Below are positions 66 to 26,496 of a stretch of 26,496 nucleotides of DNA, piece by piece. The DNA is taken from the NCBI RefSeq assembly GCF_035285525.1, contig NZ_JAYKGW010000136.1, positions 1 through 26,496 of the forward strand, in the 5' to 3' direction. Each line of letters opens with the position of its first letter. The first letter of the stretch is position 1. Source of the stretch: Okeania sp. (GTDB taxonomy: Bacteria > Cyanobacteriota > Cyanobacteriia > Cyanobacteriales > Microcoleaceae). The notes under the pieces are model-generated. The model was not told the DNA's origin. It ran no database searches and saw only the letters and a list, made by a program, of their open reading frames with translations. The translations under genes were made by a program, and so were the position numbers.

Positions 66-623
66 ATGACAACAACTAAAATTCACTTATGGACAGTAAA
101 AGAATACCATAAAATCATAGACTATGGTATTCTCACCCCAGAATCTCGTGTCGAACTTTTAGAAGGTCATATTATTAAAATAAACCCTCAACGTGCCCCC
201 CATGCTGCCACAACTCAACGGACATCTGATTATTTAAAAGCTCAATTAAGTCAGCAAGTTTATATTAGAATGCAGTTACCTATTACATTATCAAATTCTG
301 AACCAGAGCCAGATATTGCTGTAGTTAAAATCGATCCATTATTTTATGGAATTCACCACCCTACTCCACAGGAAATATTCTTTTTAATTGAAATTTCTGA
401 CACGACTTTGAAAATAGATAGGCAAGAAAAAGCACTTATTTATGCCAAAGCAAATATTCCCGAATATTGGATATTAGATGTGAGTAACCGTCAAGTTTAT
501 GTCTGTCGTTATCCTACAGCAAAAGGTTATCAATCAGAAACTATTTTGTCAGATAATGAAGTAATTAATCCTTTGAATTTTCCATCAGTTTCTTTATCTC
601 TGACAGAAATGTTTTTGCCATAG
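66..623 (+). CDS. Uma2-family (DUF820) PD-(D/E)XK putative endonuclease
   Basis: 185-aa ORF with the family-typical layout: N-terminal WTVKEYHKI / ELLEGHII segment, EPDIAV, then EISDTT...K..YA...IPEYWILD core. Confidence 0.85.
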   Translation: MTTTKIHLWTVKEYHKIIDYGILTPESRVELLEGHIIKINPQRAPHAATTQRTSDYLKAQLSQQVYIRMQLPITLSNSEPEPDIAVVKIDPLFYGIHHPTPQEIFFLIEISDTTLKIDRQEKALIYAKANIPEYWILDVSNRQVYVCRYPTAKGYQSETILSDNEVINPLNFPSVSLSLTEMFLP

Positions 624-1297: not shown

Positions 1298-1421
1298 CTC
1301 CTTTTGATATATTAATTATTAATTATTAATTATTGCAAAATATCCTGTTTTGATTCTGGAATCAGCATTTTAGTAATCCTTTTGATATATGGATTATTAA
1401 TTATTAATTATTAATTATTAC
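1298..1421. repeat. Duplicated TCCTTTTGATATAT + (TTAATTA)n heptamer block
   Basis: Two copies, at about 1298..1335 and 1377..1421. The second overlaps the stop codon of the 1418..2047 gene. Similar TTAATTA-type runs lie near 7960, 8091..8122, 8474..8512, 8901..8935 and 22090..22125. Confidence 0.75.
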
Positions 1422-2047
1422 AAAGCCAAATTGAAAATCTCGTTAGCAGATAAATTAAACTGGGGAAAAGTTGGGGAAACAATTAAAGCTTTTTCAGTAA
1501 AAGAAATCATCTGATATTCTCCATCAACTAAACTACAAACAAATAATGTCGGTTGCTTAGGATTACCAATAAATTTTCTCCCTCCCAATGCTGCATAGTC
1601 AACTATCCAATACTCCTCAATACCCATTTCTTCATAATCTCGAAATTTATTATAATAATCATCACGCCAATTAGTAGAAACAACTTCAACAATTAACTTC
1701 ACCGAATCAGAATTTTGAATAATTGATTCACTTTCCCAACGGGGTTCGGCATCAATAACTTCCTTGTTTAAAACAATTATATCCGGTTCATAACCAGATT
1801 TTTCACCAGTAGGTTTAACAATAGATTCTCTAGGAATAGTCCAAATACCACCTTTATCCATCTCCCTAATACTTATCAATAATTGCTCAATTAAAGAACC
1901 CGTTAAATTAGAATGTTTTCCCCTTGGTTTAGGCATTTCGATAATTACTCCATCATGTAATTCGTACCGGAGTTTTGAATTTTCAGGATACCAGATGATA
2001 AATTCATCAAAATTATATAGTTTTGGTTGAGCTTGGGTATAAGTCAT
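1418..2047 (-). CDS. Uma2-family (DUF820) putative endonuclease
   Basis: 209-aa ORF with YELHDGVIIEMPKP, EPDIIVL, LIVEVVSTNWRDDY, GIEEYWIVD and GNPKQPT motifs. Confidence 0.85.
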   Translation of the reverse strand: MTYTQAQPKLYNFDEFIIWYPENSKLRYELHDGVIIEMPKPRGKHSNLTGSLIEQLLISIREMDKGGIWTIPRESIVKPTGEKSGYEPDIIVLNKEVIDAEPRWESESIIQNSDSVKLIVEVVSTNWRDDYYNKFRDYEEMGIEEYWIVDYAALGGRKFIGNPKQPTLFVCSLVDGEYQMISFTEKALIVSPTFPQFNLSANEIFNLAL

Positions 2048-11156: not shown

Positions 11157-11160
11157 TTTA

Positions 11161-11230
11161 AGTCAAAAGTCAAAAGTCAAAAGTCAAAAGTCAAAAGTCA
11201 AAAGTCAAAAGTCAAAAGTCAAAAGTCAAA
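11161..11230. repeat. Heptamer tandem array (AGTCAAA) x10
   Basis: A perfect period-7 run begins 5 nt after the TpsB stop codon. Confidence 0.95.
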
Positions 11231-12103
11231 AGTTAAGTAGGGTGTGTTAGCGATAGCGTAACGCACCAGCAAATCAAAAATGGTCCAGTAGGGTGTGTTA
11301 GTAGATTTTTGTTGGGTTGAGGAACGAAACCCAACCTACGTTTATTCCACTAATTTTGACTTTGGAATTATTTTTTTTGTTGTAAAAATTAACCTTGACT
11401 GATTATTCTCCTCAATAATTGAATTTATGACAAGCCCATAATTCAATACTCAAATTCAACTCAATATCAATTTGAGCCTCAAAGTATTTGATAGCTTAGA
11501 TTTCAGCAGCAAAATTTTTTCTTAATATATGATTTTATCAATTTTTTTTAATATTGTAACTATTTAATAATAATAAAATAAATAAAAATTTTAATAATGA
11601 TAAAATTTAGATTAATTATTACTATCAGCTCAAAAAATAAACTTTAAAATCAATCAAAATAAAATAATCACTCTTAGACCAGTTTATAAAATTTGACCCT
11701 CTTTCTTTTTCTATTGAAGTTAGACAATAATCTCAATTGAGGAGGCAAAAAAAATGGCTACAGGAAATTAGAAATCAGAAATCTAAAGTAATCTCTGACC
11801 TGAAAATCAGGTTTCAAGCCTATCCATTCCAGGATTTACTGATAACTAATAACTGAAATGCCTTATTTAACCGGGGCTGGCTGATTAAATATAAAAGTCT
11901 TTATATATAAAGGTTTTAGGCTTTTTAGGTGGTAAAAAAGTACGCTGGTTTTGGCTCATGAAAACTGCTCAAGTGAGTATTTGGGTAAAACAAAAGCGCC
12001 CAAGTCAGGGGATAATTTTTCCGATTTATCGGGAACCGTGTATGTCTTCTACAACTCCTTATTCCTCTTGACTCTGTAAGGACGTTGCATAAGGACGTCC
12101 CTA

Positions 12104-12159
12104 CTACTCCCTACTCCCTACTCCCTACTCCCTACTCCCTACTCCCTACTCCCTACTCC
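12104..12159. repeat. Heptamer tandem array (CTACTCC) x8
   Basis: A perfect period-7 run ends 67 nt upstream of the chlL start. A two-copy remnant lies at about 17787..17803. Confidence 0.95.
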
Positions 12160-12226
12160 CTCCCTGCCTTAGCAGAAAGACAATTAAAGCGCAAACCCTA
12201 CCTAGATAATTATTAGGAGAAAAAAA

Positions 12227-13093
12227 GTGAAACTATCAGTATACGGAAAAGGTGGAATTGGTAAATCTACAACAAGCTGCAATATCTCAGTTGCCCTAGC
12301 CAAACGTGGTAAAAAAGTTCTACAAATCGGTTGTGACCCCAAACACGACAGTACATTTACCCTGACAGGATTTCTAATTCCCACAATTATTGACACCTTG
12401 CAAGAAAAAGACTATCATTATGAAGACATTTGGCCAGAAGATGTCATCTATAAAGGCTATGGCGGTGTAGACTGTGTAGAAGCAGGTGGACCTCCCGCTG
12501 GAGCAGGTTGTGGTGGCTATGTTGTTGGGGAAACAGTAAAACTACTCAAAGAATTAAACGCCTTTGACGAATATGACGTAATTCTATTCGACGTATTGGG
12601 CGACGTAGTTTGTGGAGGTTTTGCCGCCCCACTAAACTATTCCGACTACTGCATGATAGTTACAGACAATGGTTTTGATGCCCTATTTGCAGCGAACCGG
12701 ATAGCCGCTTCTGTACGAGAAAAAGCTCGTACCCACCCCCTACGTTTAGCTGGCCTCATCGGCAACCGTACATCAAAACGTGATTTAATCAATAAATATG
12801 TAGAAGCCGTACCAATGCCAGTATTAGAAGTTCTCCCACTAATTGAAGATATTCGAGTCTCTCGTGTTAAAGGCAAAACCCTCTTTGAAATGGCCGAAAC
12901 CGATCCTTCTCTACAATATGTTTGTAACTATTACCTAAATATCGCCGACCAAATTTTGGCATTGCCAGAAGGAGTAGTACCCAACGAATCTCCAGATCGG
13001 GATTTATTCTCTTTGTTATCTGACTTCTACTTAAATCCCAGTCAAACTCAAGTTAAGTTGGAGGATGAAGAGCTAGACTTAATGATGGTTTAA
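12227..13093 (+). CDS. chlL: Light-independent protochlorophyllide reductase, iron-sulfur ATP-binding subunit
   Basis: GTG start with AGGAG 8 nt upstream. It has a NifH-like P-loop ([14 protein letters not shown]), the cluster cysteines ([15 protein letters not shown]) and typical ChlL sequence throughout. Confidence 0.97.
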
Positions 13094-13131
13094 TAGATTT
13101 AGCCGTTCTCAGGATAAGGAATACAAAAATC

Positions 13132-14628
13132 ATGGTTTTCTTTAAACAACTATCAACGTCCCTCAAACAAAAATGGTTAGAGTATTACCAAAAAAACCGC
13201 CCTTGGTTAATACTCCACATGACAGAACAAAATACAGTCCAAACTCCCGATGGAGGTAGGAGACCCGTATCATACCTTATCCTGGGAATTCTCAATGCCC
13301 TGGATCCAGAATTAGAAGCGCTAATGTTGCCTTTCTCTAAGCTCAAGGCCGATGCAGATAGTTTAATAGAGGTTTTAGAGTTAAATTTTGACCCTGACAT
13401 TGCCATAGGGAAAAAATCAGGTTCTTCCCCAGATAAGTCAACATCTATAGGTCAGACAAGTGAAGATTCTCACGAGTCACCAGGAGCAGATCAGCCAATT
13501 ATGCCAGATATCATTGAAGATTCTGATGATTTGGGTACTGCTGCTGCTGCTGCGATTACTGGAGCTGCTGCTGTGGCTGGAGGAGTAGCATTGGCAGCAG
13601 GATTAGATCAAAATGGCAATGATTTATCTGTTGATGACCAAGATGAATCAGATTTGGCACTGGAAAGTGATGATGAGTTGATTTTAGATTCTGGCTCAGA
13701 AGTTGAGGATGATTTGGAATTAGATATGGTTCCCGATCAATCGGATTCAGAAACAGATGATGATTTTAATTTGGAATTAGATACGGTTCCCGATCAATCA
13801 GATTCCGATTCAGAAATAGATGATGATTTTAATTTGGAATTAGATTCAGATTCAGATTCAGAAATAGATGATGATTTTAATTTGGAATTAGATTCAGATT
13901 CAGATTCAGAAACAGATGATGATTTGAATTTGGAATTAGATTCAGATTCAGATTCAGAAACAGATGATGATTTGAATTTGGAATTAGATTCAGATTCAGA
14001 AACAGATGATGATTTGAATTTGGAATTAGATTCAGATTCAGAAACAGATGATGACTTAGATTTGGAATTAGAATCAGACTCAGAAACAGATGATGACTTA
14101 GATTTGGATATAGAATCAGCAGCAGATGAGTTAGATATGGCAGCAGATTCTGGCTCAGAAATAAATGATGAGTTGGAATTGAATATAGAATCAGAACCAG
14201 ATGATTTAGATTTGGAATTAGATATGGTTCCCGATCAATCAGATTCAGAAGCAGATGATGATTTGAGTAGTATTGACCTTGATGATTTAGGTGACAATCA
14301 GTCTGATGATCTTGATATAGATGCCAATGGCTCTAATTTTCTGGCAGAAGATATTCCCGATCCATTCGAGGATACATCAGCTAAGTTACATGAGTCAGGA
14401 TTGGATGATCTTGGTGATGATGATATAGATTTATTTGGTCAAGATTCCTCAGATGAAATTGGCGATCTAGATCTCAGCGACTTAGGAGATGATTTGTCTT
14501 CTGATGACTTAGAAGACTTAGATATTGACTTGGATGGAGAAGATTTGAGTTTAGATGAAGCCGATCTAGATTCTTTAGCAGGAGATAAAAAGTCTTCTCA
14601 AGATGATCTTGAAGGATTGTTGGGTTAA
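13132..14628 (+). CDS. Hyper-acidic tandem-repeat protein with a conserved-looking N-terminal domain (DUF5331-like, by recollection) and an Ala-rich hydrophobic segment
   Basis: 498-aa ORF starting 38 nt after chlL. The first 95 aa or so are non-repetitive (KQKWLEYYQKNRPWLILHM...). The segment LGTAAAAAITGAAAVAGGVALAAGL is at 13531..13605. The remaining 340 aa or so are dominated by D/E/S with LELDSDSETDDDLN-type repeats. Confidence 0.8.
   Translation: MVFFKQLSTSLKQKWLEYYQKNRPWLILHMTEQNTVQTPDGGRRPVSYLILGILNALDPELEALMLPFSKLKADADSLIEVLELNFDPDIAIGKKSGSSPDKSTSIGQTSEDSHESPGADQPIMPDIIEDSDDLGTAAAAAITGAAAVAGGVALAAGLDQNGNDLSVDDQDESDLALESDDELILDSGSEVEDDLELDMVPDQSDSETDDDFNLELDTVPDQSDSDSEIDDDFNLELDSDSDSEIDDDFNLELDSDSDSETDDDLNLELDSDSDSETDDDLNLELDSDSETDDDLNLELDSDSETDDDLDLELESDSETDDDLDLDIESAADELDMAADSGSEINDELELNIESEPDDLDLELDMVPDQSDSEADDDLSSIDLDDLGDNQSDDLDIDANGSNFLAEDIPDPFEDTSAKLHESGLDDLGDDDIDLFGQDSSDEIGDLDLSDLGDDLSSDDLEDLDIDLDGEDLSLDEADLDSLAGDKKSSQDDLEGLLG
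13714..14103 (+). repeat. In-frame coding minisatellite of eight contiguous units
   Basis: Units start at 13714, 13771, 13834, 13882, 13930, 13978, 14020 and 14062, each beginning TTGGAATTAGA. Their lengths are 57, 63, 48, 48, 48, 42, 42 and 42 nt. A related unit lies at about 14213..14270. Confidence 0.9.
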
Positions 14629-15031
14629 GTACCAAGAATACTAATTCTGTAAGCATTTCCTGCGGAATGCTGCCAAAACAGCCATTAGCAGTCAGCCAAC
14701 CTCCTGCGGAGGAACTGCCTCTTGCAGAGGAGCTGCCTCTTTCATCCGAAAATATAAGGAACCGGGAAGATGTCCCCATACAAAAAACTATTAAAATCTC
14801 AAGCTCATTTATGCAATGCCATTATAAAAATAGCTAATACAGGACTTACGCAAAGGTACTATATATAGTGTGTCGGTGCGTTGTCGTTGTACGCTAAAAC
14901 ACCCTACTAGACCCTTTCACCTTAAAATGGTGCATTAGAAAATGGGGAGATGGGATGATGGGGGGATGGGGGGATGGGGTGACGAAAAAAGCTATTGCAC
15001 TATTTTAGGTGAAATAATGCACTACCAATAG

Positions 15032-16843
<1,812 letters not shown>

Positions 16844-23979: not shown

Positions 23980-25074
23980 CTATAACTTCCTTCTTAATAA
24001 GTCAAGAGCAGTACAAGCACTAACTCTTCTTATCCAATCACGATCACGTAAAGGACTAAAGCGGTATTCAAAACTTTCTACCTGATCTTCAGACCTAGCT
24101 ATGCCAATATAAACTAGACCTACAGGTTTAGTGTCAGTTCCTCCTCCAGGTCCAGCAATACCAGTAATACTAATTCCCCAGTTAGTTTCTAATTTGTTGA
24201 CTATTCCACTTGCCATTTGCTTTGCTACTGCATGACTTACAGCACCTTCAGTAACTAAACTGCCCTGCTCTACATCTAATAAGGTAATTTTTACTTGATT
24301 TTCATAAGCTATAACTCCACCATGAAAATATTTTGAACTGCCTGGAGTAGAAGTCAACATACTACCCAAATTTCCACCCGTACAAGATTCTGCCACGGCT
24401 AAAGTTTCGCCTCTTTCTAATAATAATTTTCCTACTACTGAAGCGAGAGAATCATCATTAATGCCATAACAATATATTCCAGCAATATCTCGTATTTGTT
24501 GTTCTACAGAGGCAATTAATTTATCTGCTAATTCCTGAGACTCAGCACTGGCAGAAATTCGTAATTTTACTTCTCCAAAATTCGCATAAGGAGCAACTGT
24601 GGGATTTTTCCCTTCGAGTAAGGGTGCTACTTTTTCTGCTAAAGCTGATTCTGAAATACCCCAAAATTTTAGGGTGCGACTATAGATAGTTTCTCCACAC
24701 CAACCTTGACTCTGAAAATAAGGTACAGCAGTTTGTTGCCACATCTGTTTCATTTCCGTGGGAACTCCGGGAAATGTCATTATTGTGACATTTTGTACTG
24801 GTTCCCAAATAATTCCTGGAGCTGTACCTATGGGATTAGGTAAAATAGTTGCACCTTGGGGAATTAATGCTTGTTTTCGGTTGCTGGGAGTCATGGTGCG
24901 ACCCCGATGGGCAAATTTTTTGGTAATATCTTCGATGATTTCCGGTCTTTCTATAAGTGGGGTGTTAAAAAAGTCGGCGATAGTGGTCACTGTTAAATCG
25001 TCTGGGGTTGGGCCTAACCCTCCTGTGAAGATTAATATTTGAGACCGTTGGGAGGCGATCGCTAATACTTGTTT
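23980..25074 (-). CDS. cinA: CinA-family protein (MoCF-type N-domain plus nicotinamide-nucleotide amidase-like C-domain), 3' exon only
   Basis: The frame is open from about 25080 down to the stop at 23980. It reads KQVLAIASQRSQILIFTGGLGPTPDDLTVTTIADFF...PNPIGTAPG...LAVAESCTGGNLGSMLTSTPGSSKYFHGGVIAY. The first 50-60 residues or so expected for CinA are missing. The upstream boundary is approximate and is the inferred intron 3' splice site. Confidence 0.85.
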   Translation of the reverse strand, partial: KQVLAIASQRSQILIFTGGLGPTPDDLTVTTIADFFNTPLIERPEIIEDITKKFAHRGRTMTPSNRKQALIPQGATILPNPIGTAPGIIWEPVQNVTIMTFPGVPTEMKQMWQQTAVPYFQSQGWCGETIYSRTLKFWGISESALAEKVAPLLEGKNPTVAPYANFGEVKLRISASAESQELADKLIASVEQQIRDIAGIYCYGINDDSLASVVGKLLLERGETLAVAESCTGGNLGSMLTSTPGSSKYFHGGVIAYENQVKITLLDVEQGSLVTEGAVSHAVAKQMASGIVNKLETNWGISITGIAGPGGGTDTKPVGLVYIGIARSEDQVESFEYRFSPLRDRDWIRRVSACTALDLLRRKL

Positions 25075-25115
25075 GTTAAACTAAGCCAGCTTGTTACCAA
25101 ACCGACTCGTCTTCA

Positions 25116-25150
25116 GAACCGGACGTGAGACTTTCACCTCATCACGGCTC
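25116..25150 (-). ncRNA. Group II intron domain V
   Basis: The minus strand reads GAGCCGTGATGAGGTGAAAGTCTCACGTCCGGTTC. It has the AGC triad, a two-part stem and a GAAA tetraloop. Confidence 0.85.
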
Positions 25151-25223
25151 CTCTCTTAAACGTTCCTTGTCATGAATACATCCCTACCTCAAAACCAACA
25201 TATCGTCAAGCCATAAATAATTC

Positions 25224-26496
25224 TCAGGTAAGTCCTGTGGCTTTGGCGCATGGATATGTTTTATTGTCTAAAGCAGTTTTAGTATCGTGGCAATGTCGGT
25301 GCAACAATTGTTTATTTTTCATCGTGTTGTCACCACCAAATGACCTTGGTTTTATATGGTCTATTGACCTAAGGTTAGTTGGCTTAAAAGTTAGTCCACA
25401 AAATGCGCATTTATTCTTTTGCCGTTTTAACAGCGTTGTGACTTCTTTCCTGACGCCTGGATATTTGACAATTCTATTACTCCAATAAGTCCAGTCGCCG
25501 TCATCAGGGGATTTATTACCTTTCACCTTGATGTGCCGTACAATAAGAACATCTGAGTGTTGGTTTAGTATATATTCGCCATTATTGAGAACCCAGTTTC
25601 TGGTTCCTATTGAGGGGAAATACTCTTTCTTCACCCATTTAGCTGGCTTATTTGGATGTCTTCTACTTGCCCATCTCCATAATCTTTTCCATAAGAGCAT
25701 ATCCAGTTTATTGAATACCTCTTTACTGACGACGGTAGAGAAGTAGTGAGCAAATCCCCTGATTATCGGATTTAACTTAGCGATTATTGCTTTAGTAGGG
25801 GCAGTTTTGTGAGAATCACATATATCCGCCAATTTCCGGTAATGAGTTTTTATACTCTTGGAAGATGGTTTAATCAGCGTCTTAAATCCGTTTTTGGTTG
25901 ACTTTACCTTCCACTGCCTGACCGTGAAGCCTAAGAAGTCAAATCCAGGTTTGTTCCCTTCATATTCCTCCAAGGTGTGGGCAATTTTGGTCTTTTCTGG
26001 TTTTAGTTCTAATCCTACTTGGGTTAACCATTCCTGTATTACGGTTTTTGCTTGCAAGACTACTTTGATATCTTCGTGTAAGATTACGAAGTCATCAGCA
26101 TAGCGTATTAAAGAGAGACTATATCGTTTATCTCTTTTGGAAATTGTTTTTCCATTAGGGTATTTAAGTGGAAAATTTTCGATAAATTCCATTAGCCTGT
26201 CTTCCATACCGTGCAGGGCGATGTTTGCTAGTAGGGGTGATATTACCCCGGACTGTGGTGTTCCTTCCACAGTGTCTGAGAATTGTTTATTGTCAAATAC
26301 CCCAGACTTTAGCCATTGTTTAATTAATCGTCTATAGGGGGATTGACCAACTTTTCCCAACAGTGCATCATGGTTAATTTGGTCAAAACATTTGGATATA
26401 TCAGCATCTAATACATACTTGGGTTTATGGTTGATGCTGACATAGATTGCCTCAATGGCATCATGTGTTGACCCCCGGAAAAGACCATAACTATTA
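25224..26496 (-). CDS. Group II intron reverse transcriptase/maturase with a C-terminal HNH endonuclease domain (5' end outside the window)
   Basis: The frame stays open upstream of the tracked start (26360) to the window edge (…THDAIEAIYVSINHKPKYVLDADISKCFDQINHDALLGKV...). It has PLLANIALHGMED, RYADDFVILH, a maturase-like W/R-rich region, and HNH (CAFCG...IDHIKPRSFGGDN...HRHCH). Confidence 0.9.
   Translation of the reverse strand, partial: NSYGLFRGSTHDAIEAIYVSINHKPKYVLDADISKCFDQINHDALLGKVGQSPYRRLIKQWLKSGVFDNKQFSDTVEGTPQSGVISPLLANIALHGMEDRLMEFIENFPLKYPNGKTISKRDKRYSLSLIRYADDFVILHEDIKVVLQAKTVIQEWLTQVGLELKPEKTKIAHTLEEYEGNKPGFDFLGFTVRQWKVKSTKNGFKTLIKPSSKSIKTHYRKLADICDSHKTAPTKAIIAKLNPIIRGFAHYFSTVVSKEVFNKLDMLLWKRLWRWASRRHPNKPAKWVKKEYFPSIGTRNWVLNNGEYILNQHSDVLIVRHIKVKGNKSPDDGDWTYWSNRIVKYPGVRKEVTTLLKRQKNKCAFCGLTFKPTNLRSIDHIKPRSFGGDNTMKNKQLLHRHCHDTKTALDNKTYPCAKATGLT

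Follow-up and report, generated by a model that had tools for sequence, protein, structure and literature searches.

The gene that lies between chlL and chlN in Okeania sp. encodes a protein with a small folded N-terminal domain and a hyper-acidic tail, and the arrangement chlL-DUF5331-chlN in which it stands is a conserved operon arrangement, not an insertion. The sequence analyzed, referred to here as the window, was the whole stretch of 26,496 nucleotides (nt) of contig NZ_JAYKGW010000136.1 (assembly GCF_035285525.1, positions 1 to 26,496, forward strand); coordinates are on the + strand unless another is given. Its ORF list, Pfam matches and composition defined an open reading frame (ORF) of 498 amino acids (aa) plus stop, with an ATG start, at 13132..14628. 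The product is a clear member of DUF5331, a Pfam family that is catalogued but uncharacterized, and the flanking genes encode components of DPOR, a protochlorophyllide oxidoreductase of the dark-operative type. We propose that the protein may be an accessory or adaptor of the DPOR L-protein acting through its head and its tail and tip, a reading to which we give an about even chance of being right.

The upstream gene, chlL (12227..13093), codes for the L-protein, a [4Fe-4S] ATP-dependent reductase, and was recognized by its matches to TIGR01281 (E=8e-145) and PF00142 (E=7.8e-110). For its part, chlN (15446..16843), which codes for subunit N of the DPOR NB-protein, matched NF002768 (E=1.2e-200) and PF00148 (E=1.5e-45); it is contained in an ORF spanning 15353..16843, in which the likely start is the ATG at 15446, as backed by an alignment of relatives. 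Exactly 38 nt separate the chlL stop from the start of the DUF5331 ORF. An earlier reading of this DNA, made from the letters without database searches (the sequence-only reading), had placed a 498-aa ORF 38 nt past chlL, and the coordinates of the ORF and of the chlL end at 13093 agreed with that description. The ORF is a real gene: chance falls far short of explaining a domain match at the 1e-42 level and orthologs that are intact in about 70 species.

A profile search with the N-terminal domain detected relatives in at least 453 species genomes. Synteny was counted in the best 80 species loci among the profile matches, which belong to the Microcoleaceae (Trichodesmium, Okeania, Microcoleus and Tychonema). 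In 79 of these 80 loci chlL was found 31 to 39 nt upstream of the DUF5331 gene, and the contig of the 80th begins 78 nt before the ORF. Downstream, chlN was present in 72 of the 80, the other eight contigs ending inside the ORF or just past it. The same chlL-DUF5331-chlN order was observed in Gloeocapsopsis (a 183-aa protein), Arthrospira, two long ENA contigs, Leptolyngbya PCC 6406 (115 aa) and Prochlorothrix hollandica (124 aa), as well as with a 128-aa protein of the 'YLNKIREE' type and on a Nostocales-type contig with a 329-aa protein. When the DPOR-linked clade is defined operationally, by a gene that stands between chlL and chlN in their orientation and begins within a few tens of nt of the chlL end, it comprises 79 of the 80 loci plus seven further lineages, and the window fits this definition, as it does a second one, an acidic disordered tail closed by a conserved acidic/hydrophobic tip. 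A published gene table for Anabaena PCC 7120 gives chlN as all5076 and chlL as all5078 (PMC4915528); since these tags flank it, all5077 is the single gene between the two. The recurrent linkage to chlL and chlN that the sequence-only reading had asked for was thus found again in many other genomes, whereas its description of the gene as "inserted" between the two had to be dropped, because the gene is a widespread, conserved operon member of which only the tail length is lineage specific. Plasmid and phage searches yielded no DUF5331 copies on either kind of element. A short metagenomic contig (L096) carries two DUF5331 genes in tandem, and three entries (P0087-P0089) have two DUF5331 stretches within one protein.

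The 38-nt spacer between chlL and the ORF (13094..13131) contains the ribosome-binding site GGATAAGGAA, seen in the sequence and in the alignment of relatives. In an alignment of nine relatives the spacer reached 88% mean column identity and showed an AGGA-type ribosome-binding site, which, with the spacing of 31 to 39 nt in 79 species, bore out the tight placement after chlL that had been remarked on earlier. No promoter-like site was seen inside the spacer and no + strand terminator was found anywhere in the region, both in scans that performed at chance level, and an Rfam search of the surroundings of the gene, with E values of up to 1 allowed, was empty. The spacer between the ORF and chlN (14629..15445), with repeats and a conserved element of about 80 nt, is 817 nt long in the window; its length is -4 to about 300 nt in most lineages and 220 to 1500 nt in Microcoleaceae. 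The conserved element abuts the chlN start (15380..15445 in the window; also in L001, L004-L008, L014 and L016) and is kept among Okeania/Trichodesmium-type relatives, while the rest of the spacer is not, which suggests a separate chlN promoter or leader in this lineage. Since this second spacer is long and variable and chlN has its own conserved upstream element, the firm coupling of the DUF5331 gene is to chlL.

Two repeats were noted in the ORF-chlN spacer. One is a G-rich octamer, ATGGGGGG, present in 4.8 copies at 14942..14979. The other, at 15032..15343, comprises 2.7 tandem copies of a 118-nt unit (89% matches), each of which holds a 12-bp hairpin (GTAGGGGTTTGG..CCAACCCTCTAC) followed by the T-run CAGGGTTTTTTGA; no further copies were found elsewhere in the window or in 93 compared loci, and the array could be a local attenuator or terminator array or a small mobile repeat. 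On the other side of chlL, the first half of the upstream intergenic region of about 1.07 kb (11157..12226) is very AT-rich (GC 0.20-0.29 at about 11300-11900), and no Rfam match was obtained there.

The folded N-terminal domain (residues 1 to 95; 13132..13416), delimited by Pfam, AlphaFold2 (AF2), Foldseek and alignment, is the constant part of the family. Residues 1 to 105 matched PF17265 (DUF5331; E=4.7e-42) with a score of 142.7 bits, the cut-off being 27, in agreement with the family name that the sequence-only reading had given, and DUF5331 was the sole match, no other Pfam family being found in the protein at E up to 0.1. From a 79-sequence alignment, AF2 modeled residues 1 to 96 as a small helical bundle with a beta-hairpin that bears the invariant TPDGGRRP (mean predicted local distance difference test [pLDDT] value, 84.9; predicted template modeling [pTM] score, 0.75). 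Across 30 diverse members, residues W15, L16, W25, P45, L84, F86 and P88 never varied; the window protein has all of them, together with the family motifs KWL, NRxW, the TPDGGRRP hairpin and LNFDP. The domain was found to be conserved across relatives, a point on which the claim for the gene had beforehand been made to depend. The domain, of about 95 aa, is without a detectable structural relative: the best match in a profile search of PDB had an E value of 0.12, and Foldseek gave best values of 5.6 in PDB and 0.27 in BFVD, none of them significant. No second Pfam or NCBIfam family recurred among the 30 diverse members, and residues 1 to 133 of the window protein contain no Cys.

The domain is followed by an acidic, Ser/Pro-containing linker (residues 96 to 133; 13417..13530), predicted to be disordered where it was modeled (pLDDT <50 for residues 97 to 105), and by a weakly hydrophobic Ala/Gly-rich stretch, LGTAAAAAITGAAAVAGGVALAAGL (residues 134 to 158; 13531..13605), whose 25 residues, 12 Ala and 5 Gly among them, lie where they had first been read. 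Next come an acidic low-complexity region (residues 159 to 402; 13606..14337), which includes a tandem array at 13712..14119, and a conserved, nonrepeat C-terminal module (residues 403 to 498; 14338..14625) that begins with FLAEDIPDPF (14338..14367) and ends in the tip DDLEGLLG (14602..14625). The tail as a whole (residues 159 to 498, 340 aa) has 148 Asp and Glu residues versus 3 Lys and Arg, for a net charge of about -145, and 32% of it is Asp. The extreme acidity that had been described was therefore real, but the tail is not almost pure Asp, Glu and Ser, since these three make up 57% of it, Leu accounts for 16% and the last 96 residues or so are not repeats.

Tandem Repeats Finder reported a period of 48 nt for the array at 13712..14119, which consists of nine units of 14 to 21 aa with near-identical DNA, of the type DSDSE[TI]DDD[FL][ND]LEL. 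Each unit consists of an acidic run and, after it, a short hydrophobic motif (LNLEL or LDLEL). The repeat units of relatives are lineage specific, of LNLEL, FALEL, LDMGL, VSDFDM, ISDFDM, DLGGLGL, MDLSAF and MDLGLG types, and all combine an acidic run with a short hydrophobic motif; to judge from their sequences, the repeats are independent, lineage-specific expansions of one linker theme. The length of the protein after the domain varies accordingly with lineage, from about 20 to 30 aa in Leptolyngbya, Nodosilinea and Prochlorothrix through about 80 to 240 aa in Nostocales types to 250 to 440 aa in Microcoleaceae, whose complete orthologs measure 344 to 535 aa in total. The start motif of the C-terminal module, F[VIL]AE[DE]IPDPF (residues 403 to 412 in the window protein), was present in 58 of 68 orthologs, always 74 to 92 aa from the C terminus, yet 242 to 441 aa from the N terminus, and the module of about 90 aa aligns across genera. 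Because the module is fixed from the C terminus and variable from the N terminus, the variable repeats must sit between the Ala/Gly stretch and the module.

The tips differ in letters among lineages. Short forms end in ...EISGLLPD or ...SRLLPD (the xLLPD type) or in ...TPLLEGLEGL; Nostocales types end in ...EISRLFPNF and Microcoleus in ...EEISGFLSDFK (54 of 68), while ...DDLEGLLG is the ending of the window protein and of Okeania/Trichodesmium-type orthologs, in 11 of which the final 8 residues are the same letter for letter. All these tips are one kind of short acidic/hydrophobic C-terminal peptide, kept despite the variation in tail length. In an AF2 model of the Prochlorothrix ortholog (97 sequences), residues 1 to 94 had pLDDT values of >90 and the tail and tip values of 34 to 42, as befits a disordered tail. 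Docking of the tip in cis on its own domain was considered and was not supported, the tip having a pLDDT of 34 to 42 in this model. Residues 259 to 267 of ChlL (13001..13027), DLFSLLSDF, resemble the Microcoleus DUF5331 tip EEISGFLSDFK; this likeness was noticed post hoc, the background rate of so loose a pattern is not negligible, and it may be due to chance, but a genuine likeness would make the tip a possible mimic of part of ChlL.

The composition of the tail had led the sequence-only reading to name calsequestrin-like cation buffers, DNA mimics and electrostatic tethers. Buffering and DNA mimicry had composition as their sole basis, and neither was supported, given orthologs at the same position with tails of only about 20 to 30 aa; among these first ideas, the anatomy of the protein suggests that the electrostatic tether is the closest. 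A high-capacity, low-affinity buffer of cations (Ca2+, Mg2+, Fe) next to DPOR, working in the manner of calsequestrin, would agree with about -145 charges over 340 residues and 32% Asp, and circumstantially with the response of Anabaena DPOR genes to long-term calcium levels (PMC4915528). We regard it, however, as a most improbable account of the protein. The likeness to calsequestrin is confined to extreme Asp/Glu content, Pfam found no calsequestrin domain or EF-hand family match, protein contacts are indicated by the conserved tip and by hydrophobic motifs at regular intervals, and the tail is dispensable in orthologs; since orthologs at the same locus have tails of about 20 to 30 aa, neither buffering nor a high charge capacity can be the core function of the family. 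The Ser-Asp repeat adhesins (ClfA/SdrC) are another compositional likeness, with Ser-Asp content and weak compositional NCBIfam matches. The scores for ClfA, ClfB and SdrC were 31.5, 19.9 and 19.1 bits versus cut-offs of 1150, 999 and 1700, and an adhesin was rejected; on direct reading of the sequence, neither a signal peptide-like N terminus nor an LPXTG motif was seen.

It could also be that only the N-terminal domain and the tip matter and that the long array is neutral, slippage-prone DNA tolerated in frame. The near-identical DNA of the units, and hence their recent origin, would fit such neutrality, as would the variation of copy number and unit sequence between genera (344 to 535 aa in total length) and the existence of short-tail orthologs. 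Yet independent expansions in many lineages have yielded the same kind of unit, and long tails were present in all of the approximately 70 complete Microcoleaceae orthologs, so that we hold neutrality of the array to be very unlikely. This pattern suggests that selection in these filamentous forms has favored a linker that is long, acidic and multivalent, and the sequence comparisons argue that the tail is functional and not junk.

The coding status of the gene was in agreement with this. About 70 orthologs of 344 to 535 aa keep the C-terminal module downstream of the repeats, whereas a frameshift in the repeats would mean loss of the module; because the module is kept at a fixed C-terminal distance past variable repeats, the reading frame through them is under selection. 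Frame-disrupted relatives had been named as a finding that would speak against the gene. Among the 80 Microcoleaceae loci there were no genuine ones: pseudogenes were ruled out for L020, L029, L039, L056, L060 and L078, in which the disruptions coincide with runs of N or with contig ends. The Arthrospira copy, on the other hand, is split by an apparent frameshift. On the chromosome of Arthrospira sp. PCC 9108 (L082, 5001..6517) the gene is divided into ORFs of 173 and 327 aa inside 17-aa acidic repeats (DDATDDLATDDMDLGLG), which may reflect either genuine disruption of the gene or an error in sequencing, and similar splits were seen in the two long ENA contigs (L083 and L084).

Peptide evidence, which had likewise been asked for, exists for an ortholog. 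In Trichodesmium erythraeum IMS101 this is Tery_1531, annotated only as "hypothetical" or "DUF5331 domain-containing." Its N-terminal domain is 93% and its C-terminal module 73% identical to those of the window protein, and the Ala/Gly stretch, acidic tandem repeats and DDLEGLLG tip are common to both; the differences lie in the repeat unit (FALEL in Tery_1531, LNLEL and another copy number in the window protein) and in the length (415 versus 498 aa). In the normalized spectral-count table of a published mass spectrometry proteome, which required at least two peptides per protein, Tery_1531 had nonzero values in 24 of 24 samples. The ortholog is thus expressed. The exact sequence of the window protein was not found in a collection of 15 billion proteins.

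The Ala/Gly stretch was present in 71 of 72 long Microcoleaceae-type ORFs, the window counted, but orthologs of the Nostocales, Leptolyngbya and Prochlorothrix types, which occupy the same locus, lack it. Its best 19-mer scored +2.15 kcal/mol on the Hessa scale, with acidic flanks on both sides that contain no Lys or Arg and with 10 small-xxx-small motifs; the 19-mer sum was within the range of some helices of the 7TM-HD protein of the window and well above the sums of tail-anchored paralogs (-2.6 and -1.2). The stretch might be a tether for membrane or self-association, lying in or on the thylakoid membrane or zipping oligomers together so as to keep ChlL or DPOR close to those steps of chlorophyll synthesis that are membrane bound, the tail projecting as a spacer. 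We consider this quite unlikely: its near-constant presence in the long ORFs, its many small-xxx-small motifs and the clearly hydrophobic C-terminal anchor of some paralogs (P0138 and P0150) are in its favor, but the hydrophobicity is marginal, the flanks are acidic and devoid of Lys and Arg, and its absence from the other ortholog types would make it a lineage-specific add-on at most.

The domain also occurs away from DPOR genes. An exhaustive profile search yielded 310 cluster representatives of DUF5331, the distant ones with basic instead of acidic tails. Of four basic-tail paralogs looked up, three directly follow a gene for a thioredoxin-like [2Fe-2S] ferredoxin of about 100 aa (PF01257, above the gathering score). 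A metagenome scan with a clade-specific profile then gave 80 loci, 79 of them with room upstream, and in 65 of these 79 a same-strand ferredoxin gene lay immediately upstream of the paralog, at a gap of 32 to 276 nt (median, 60); in two more the ferredoxin gene was farther upstream. Neither chlL nor chlN was found in the scanned paralog loci (L097-L176, L089, L092 and L093). Since both clades follow the gene for a small, low-potential Fe-S protein, the DUF5331 domain tracks small Fe-S electron carriers, and the ferredoxin linkage of the sister clade suggests a more general Fe-S-protein partner domain. Some further features of these paralogs were recorded. In L089 a metallothionein gene lies just past the paralog. 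Many basic-tail paralogs (P0128, P0137, P0141, P0152, P0153, P0155, P0170 and P0172) end in W[DN]R[DE]E.[IV][FLY]I.F, with EAIFIPF, EAIVIPF and EAVYIRF as examples, endings that resemble the DDDIPF tip of bacterial single-stranded DNA-binding protein (SSB). P0138 and P0150 have a strongly hydrophobic, tail-anchored-like C-terminal segment, with Hessa sums of -1.2 and -2.6 kcal/mol, respectively.

The same linkage could reflect a dedicated maturation or assembly chaperone. Its N-terminal domain would assist folding, dimerization or cluster acquisition of ChlL or, in the case of the paralogs, of the [2Fe-2S] ferredoxin, and the tail would serve only as a solubility-enhancing entropic bristle; NifM, which acts on NifH, offers a parallel in role only, without homology. 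The immediate succession to a small Fe-S protein gene in both clades, the tight translational coupling to chlL and the fact that the N-terminal domain is the only strictly conserved globular part would all be expected of such a factor. A bristle, however, would need no conserved tip or C-terminal module, the N-terminal domain has neither Cys/His ligands nor similarity to known Fe-S assembly factors, and species without the gene still make ChlL. We therefore think a chaperone rather unlikely.

Under the accessory reading that we favor, the ORF would be translated from the same mRNA as chlL and its product would work with the DPOR L-protein, on a plan of folded head, disordered acidic linker and conserved C-terminal tip. 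The N-terminal domain would most likely bind the small Fe-S redox protein encoded just upstream, here ChlL. The acidic tail and the tip would stay free and probably make contact in trans with a surface that is basic or hydrophobic, most plausibly the positively charged cluster or docking face of the L-protein or the NB-protein, and the oxygen-sensitive component would thereby be masked, regulated or held on a tether. In Microcoleaceae, tandem duplication has expanded the linker into an array of acidic-plus-hydrophobic mini-motifs and the Ala/Gly stretch has been gained; the two may add reach and valency, and possibly self- or membrane association, and would not be needed for the core function.

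A precedent exists in BchL: a disordered N-terminal peptide stretches over its [4Fe-4S] docking face and keeps the enzyme autoinhibited until binding of ATP, and the study in question points out that cyanobacterial ChlL does not conserve this region (Corless et al. 2020, PMC7948495). In the sequence of the window ChlL the P-loop lies right at the N terminus, with no extension of the BchL type. Because of this precedent, and with a ChlL that lacks the extension, a separate protein that provides a disordered acidic peptide to the L-protein is a reasonable model of how the latter might be regulated, tethered or protected from oxygen. The peptide of BchL is, like the tail described here, disordered, partly acidic and associated with a DPOR L-protein, but it is part of the L-protein itself and has the motif DGEGSVQVH, whereas here the disordered segment would be offered by a separate protein and masking would be its putative role; we rate this specific mechanism as much less probable than the general accessory reading. 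A wider proposal makes DUF5331 a partner family for Fe-S carriers and its chlL-linked clade a facultative fourth DPOR component, whose free acidic tail and tip would act in trans as a cap or tether on the [4Fe-4S] face of ChlL, as a counterpart to the BchL peptide, and thereby adjust activity or tolerance of oxygen in oxygenic phototrophs, the array and Ala/Gly stretch of Microcoleaceae clustering DPOR in a membrane-associated or condensate-like assembly. In this full form we find it an unlikely, speculative extension.

Several points weigh against a role in DPOR. The gene is not universal among cyanobacteria with DPOR, given that chlN and chlL of Acaryochloris have adjacent locus tags, and in Synechocystis the two genes likewise have adjacent tags, slr0749 and slr0750. 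Reconstitution of DPOR has been achieved with nothing but its three subunits. As the gene is not universal and three subunits suffice for reconstitution, any role in DPOR would be accessory. In the window chlN lies 817 nt away with its own conserved upstream element, and the operon may comprise only chlL and the DUF5331 gene in this lineage. Gene order alone cannot tell a regulator from a maturation factor, the N-terminal domain has no recognizable fold relative or cofactor ligands to guide a mechanism, and the AF2 model gives no hint of where the tip binds.

Known systems with a comparable plan were also considered. SSB consists of a folded domain, a disordered linker of variable length and a conserved acidic/hydrophobic C-terminal tip. 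DUF5331 proteins resemble it in a head that stays constant, a linker that differs in length by more than 10-fold between lineages and a short conserved tip predicted to be free, by analogy of design and not by homology; they differ in that the head is helical and has no OB fold according to AF2, and in that the linker is far more acidic and repetitive. FeSII (Shethna protein II), a [2Fe-2S] ferredoxin, and CowN are small proteins that protect nitrogenase, and the likeness here would be that of a small accessory protein working with a nitrogenase-type, oxygen-sensitive two-component enzyme. A ferredoxin of the FeSII type was rejected, residues 1 to 133 being free of Cys and no sequence or fold similarity being found.

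As the sequence-only reading had supposed, no function has been assigned: the searchable literature on DUF5331, all5077, the chlL/chlN operon and DPOR accessory factors does not describe the gene, the reviews of DPOR and chlorophyll synthesis that were checked name no such factor, and all5077, which shares the position between chlL and chlN, is not listed in the supplements of the Anabaena calcium paper (PMC4915528). Compared with that literature, three findings appear to be new: how widely and how strictly the chlL-X-chlN arrangement is kept, the architecture of head, variable acidic linker and conserved tip, and the thioredoxin-like ferredoxin linkage of the sister clade.

Elsewhere in the window, a group II intron and a cinA ORF were located on the - strand (25075..26360 and 23980..24990). 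The intron has domain V/VI matches to Rfam RF00029 and RF04357 and an ORF for reverse transcriptase, maturase and HNH functions. It lies directly upstream of the cinA ORF, in which the MoCF_biosynth match is limited to model positions 77 to 142 of 144, the C-terminal half, and the intron probably interrupts cinA. Two genes of the Uma2 family (putative restriction endonuclease-like), a family very abundant in filamentous cyanobacteria, lie close together at 66..623 (+ strand) and 1418..2047 (- strand).

DPOR is an oxygen-sensitive, nitrogenase-like enzyme that must work in oxygen-making cells, and a conserved, expressed gene that stands between chlL and chlN in hundreds of species is an obvious candidate for an accessory factor. 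By position, its ortholog in the genetically tractable Anabaena PCC 7120 is all5077, so that the proposal is directly testable. The tail, for its part, provides a natural series of 20 to 430 residues with a fixed tip in which the evolution of disordered linkers can be followed. If it is true that the protein stabilizes or regulates the L-protein, the finding would bear on the expression of nitrogenase-like enzymes in oxygenic hosts.

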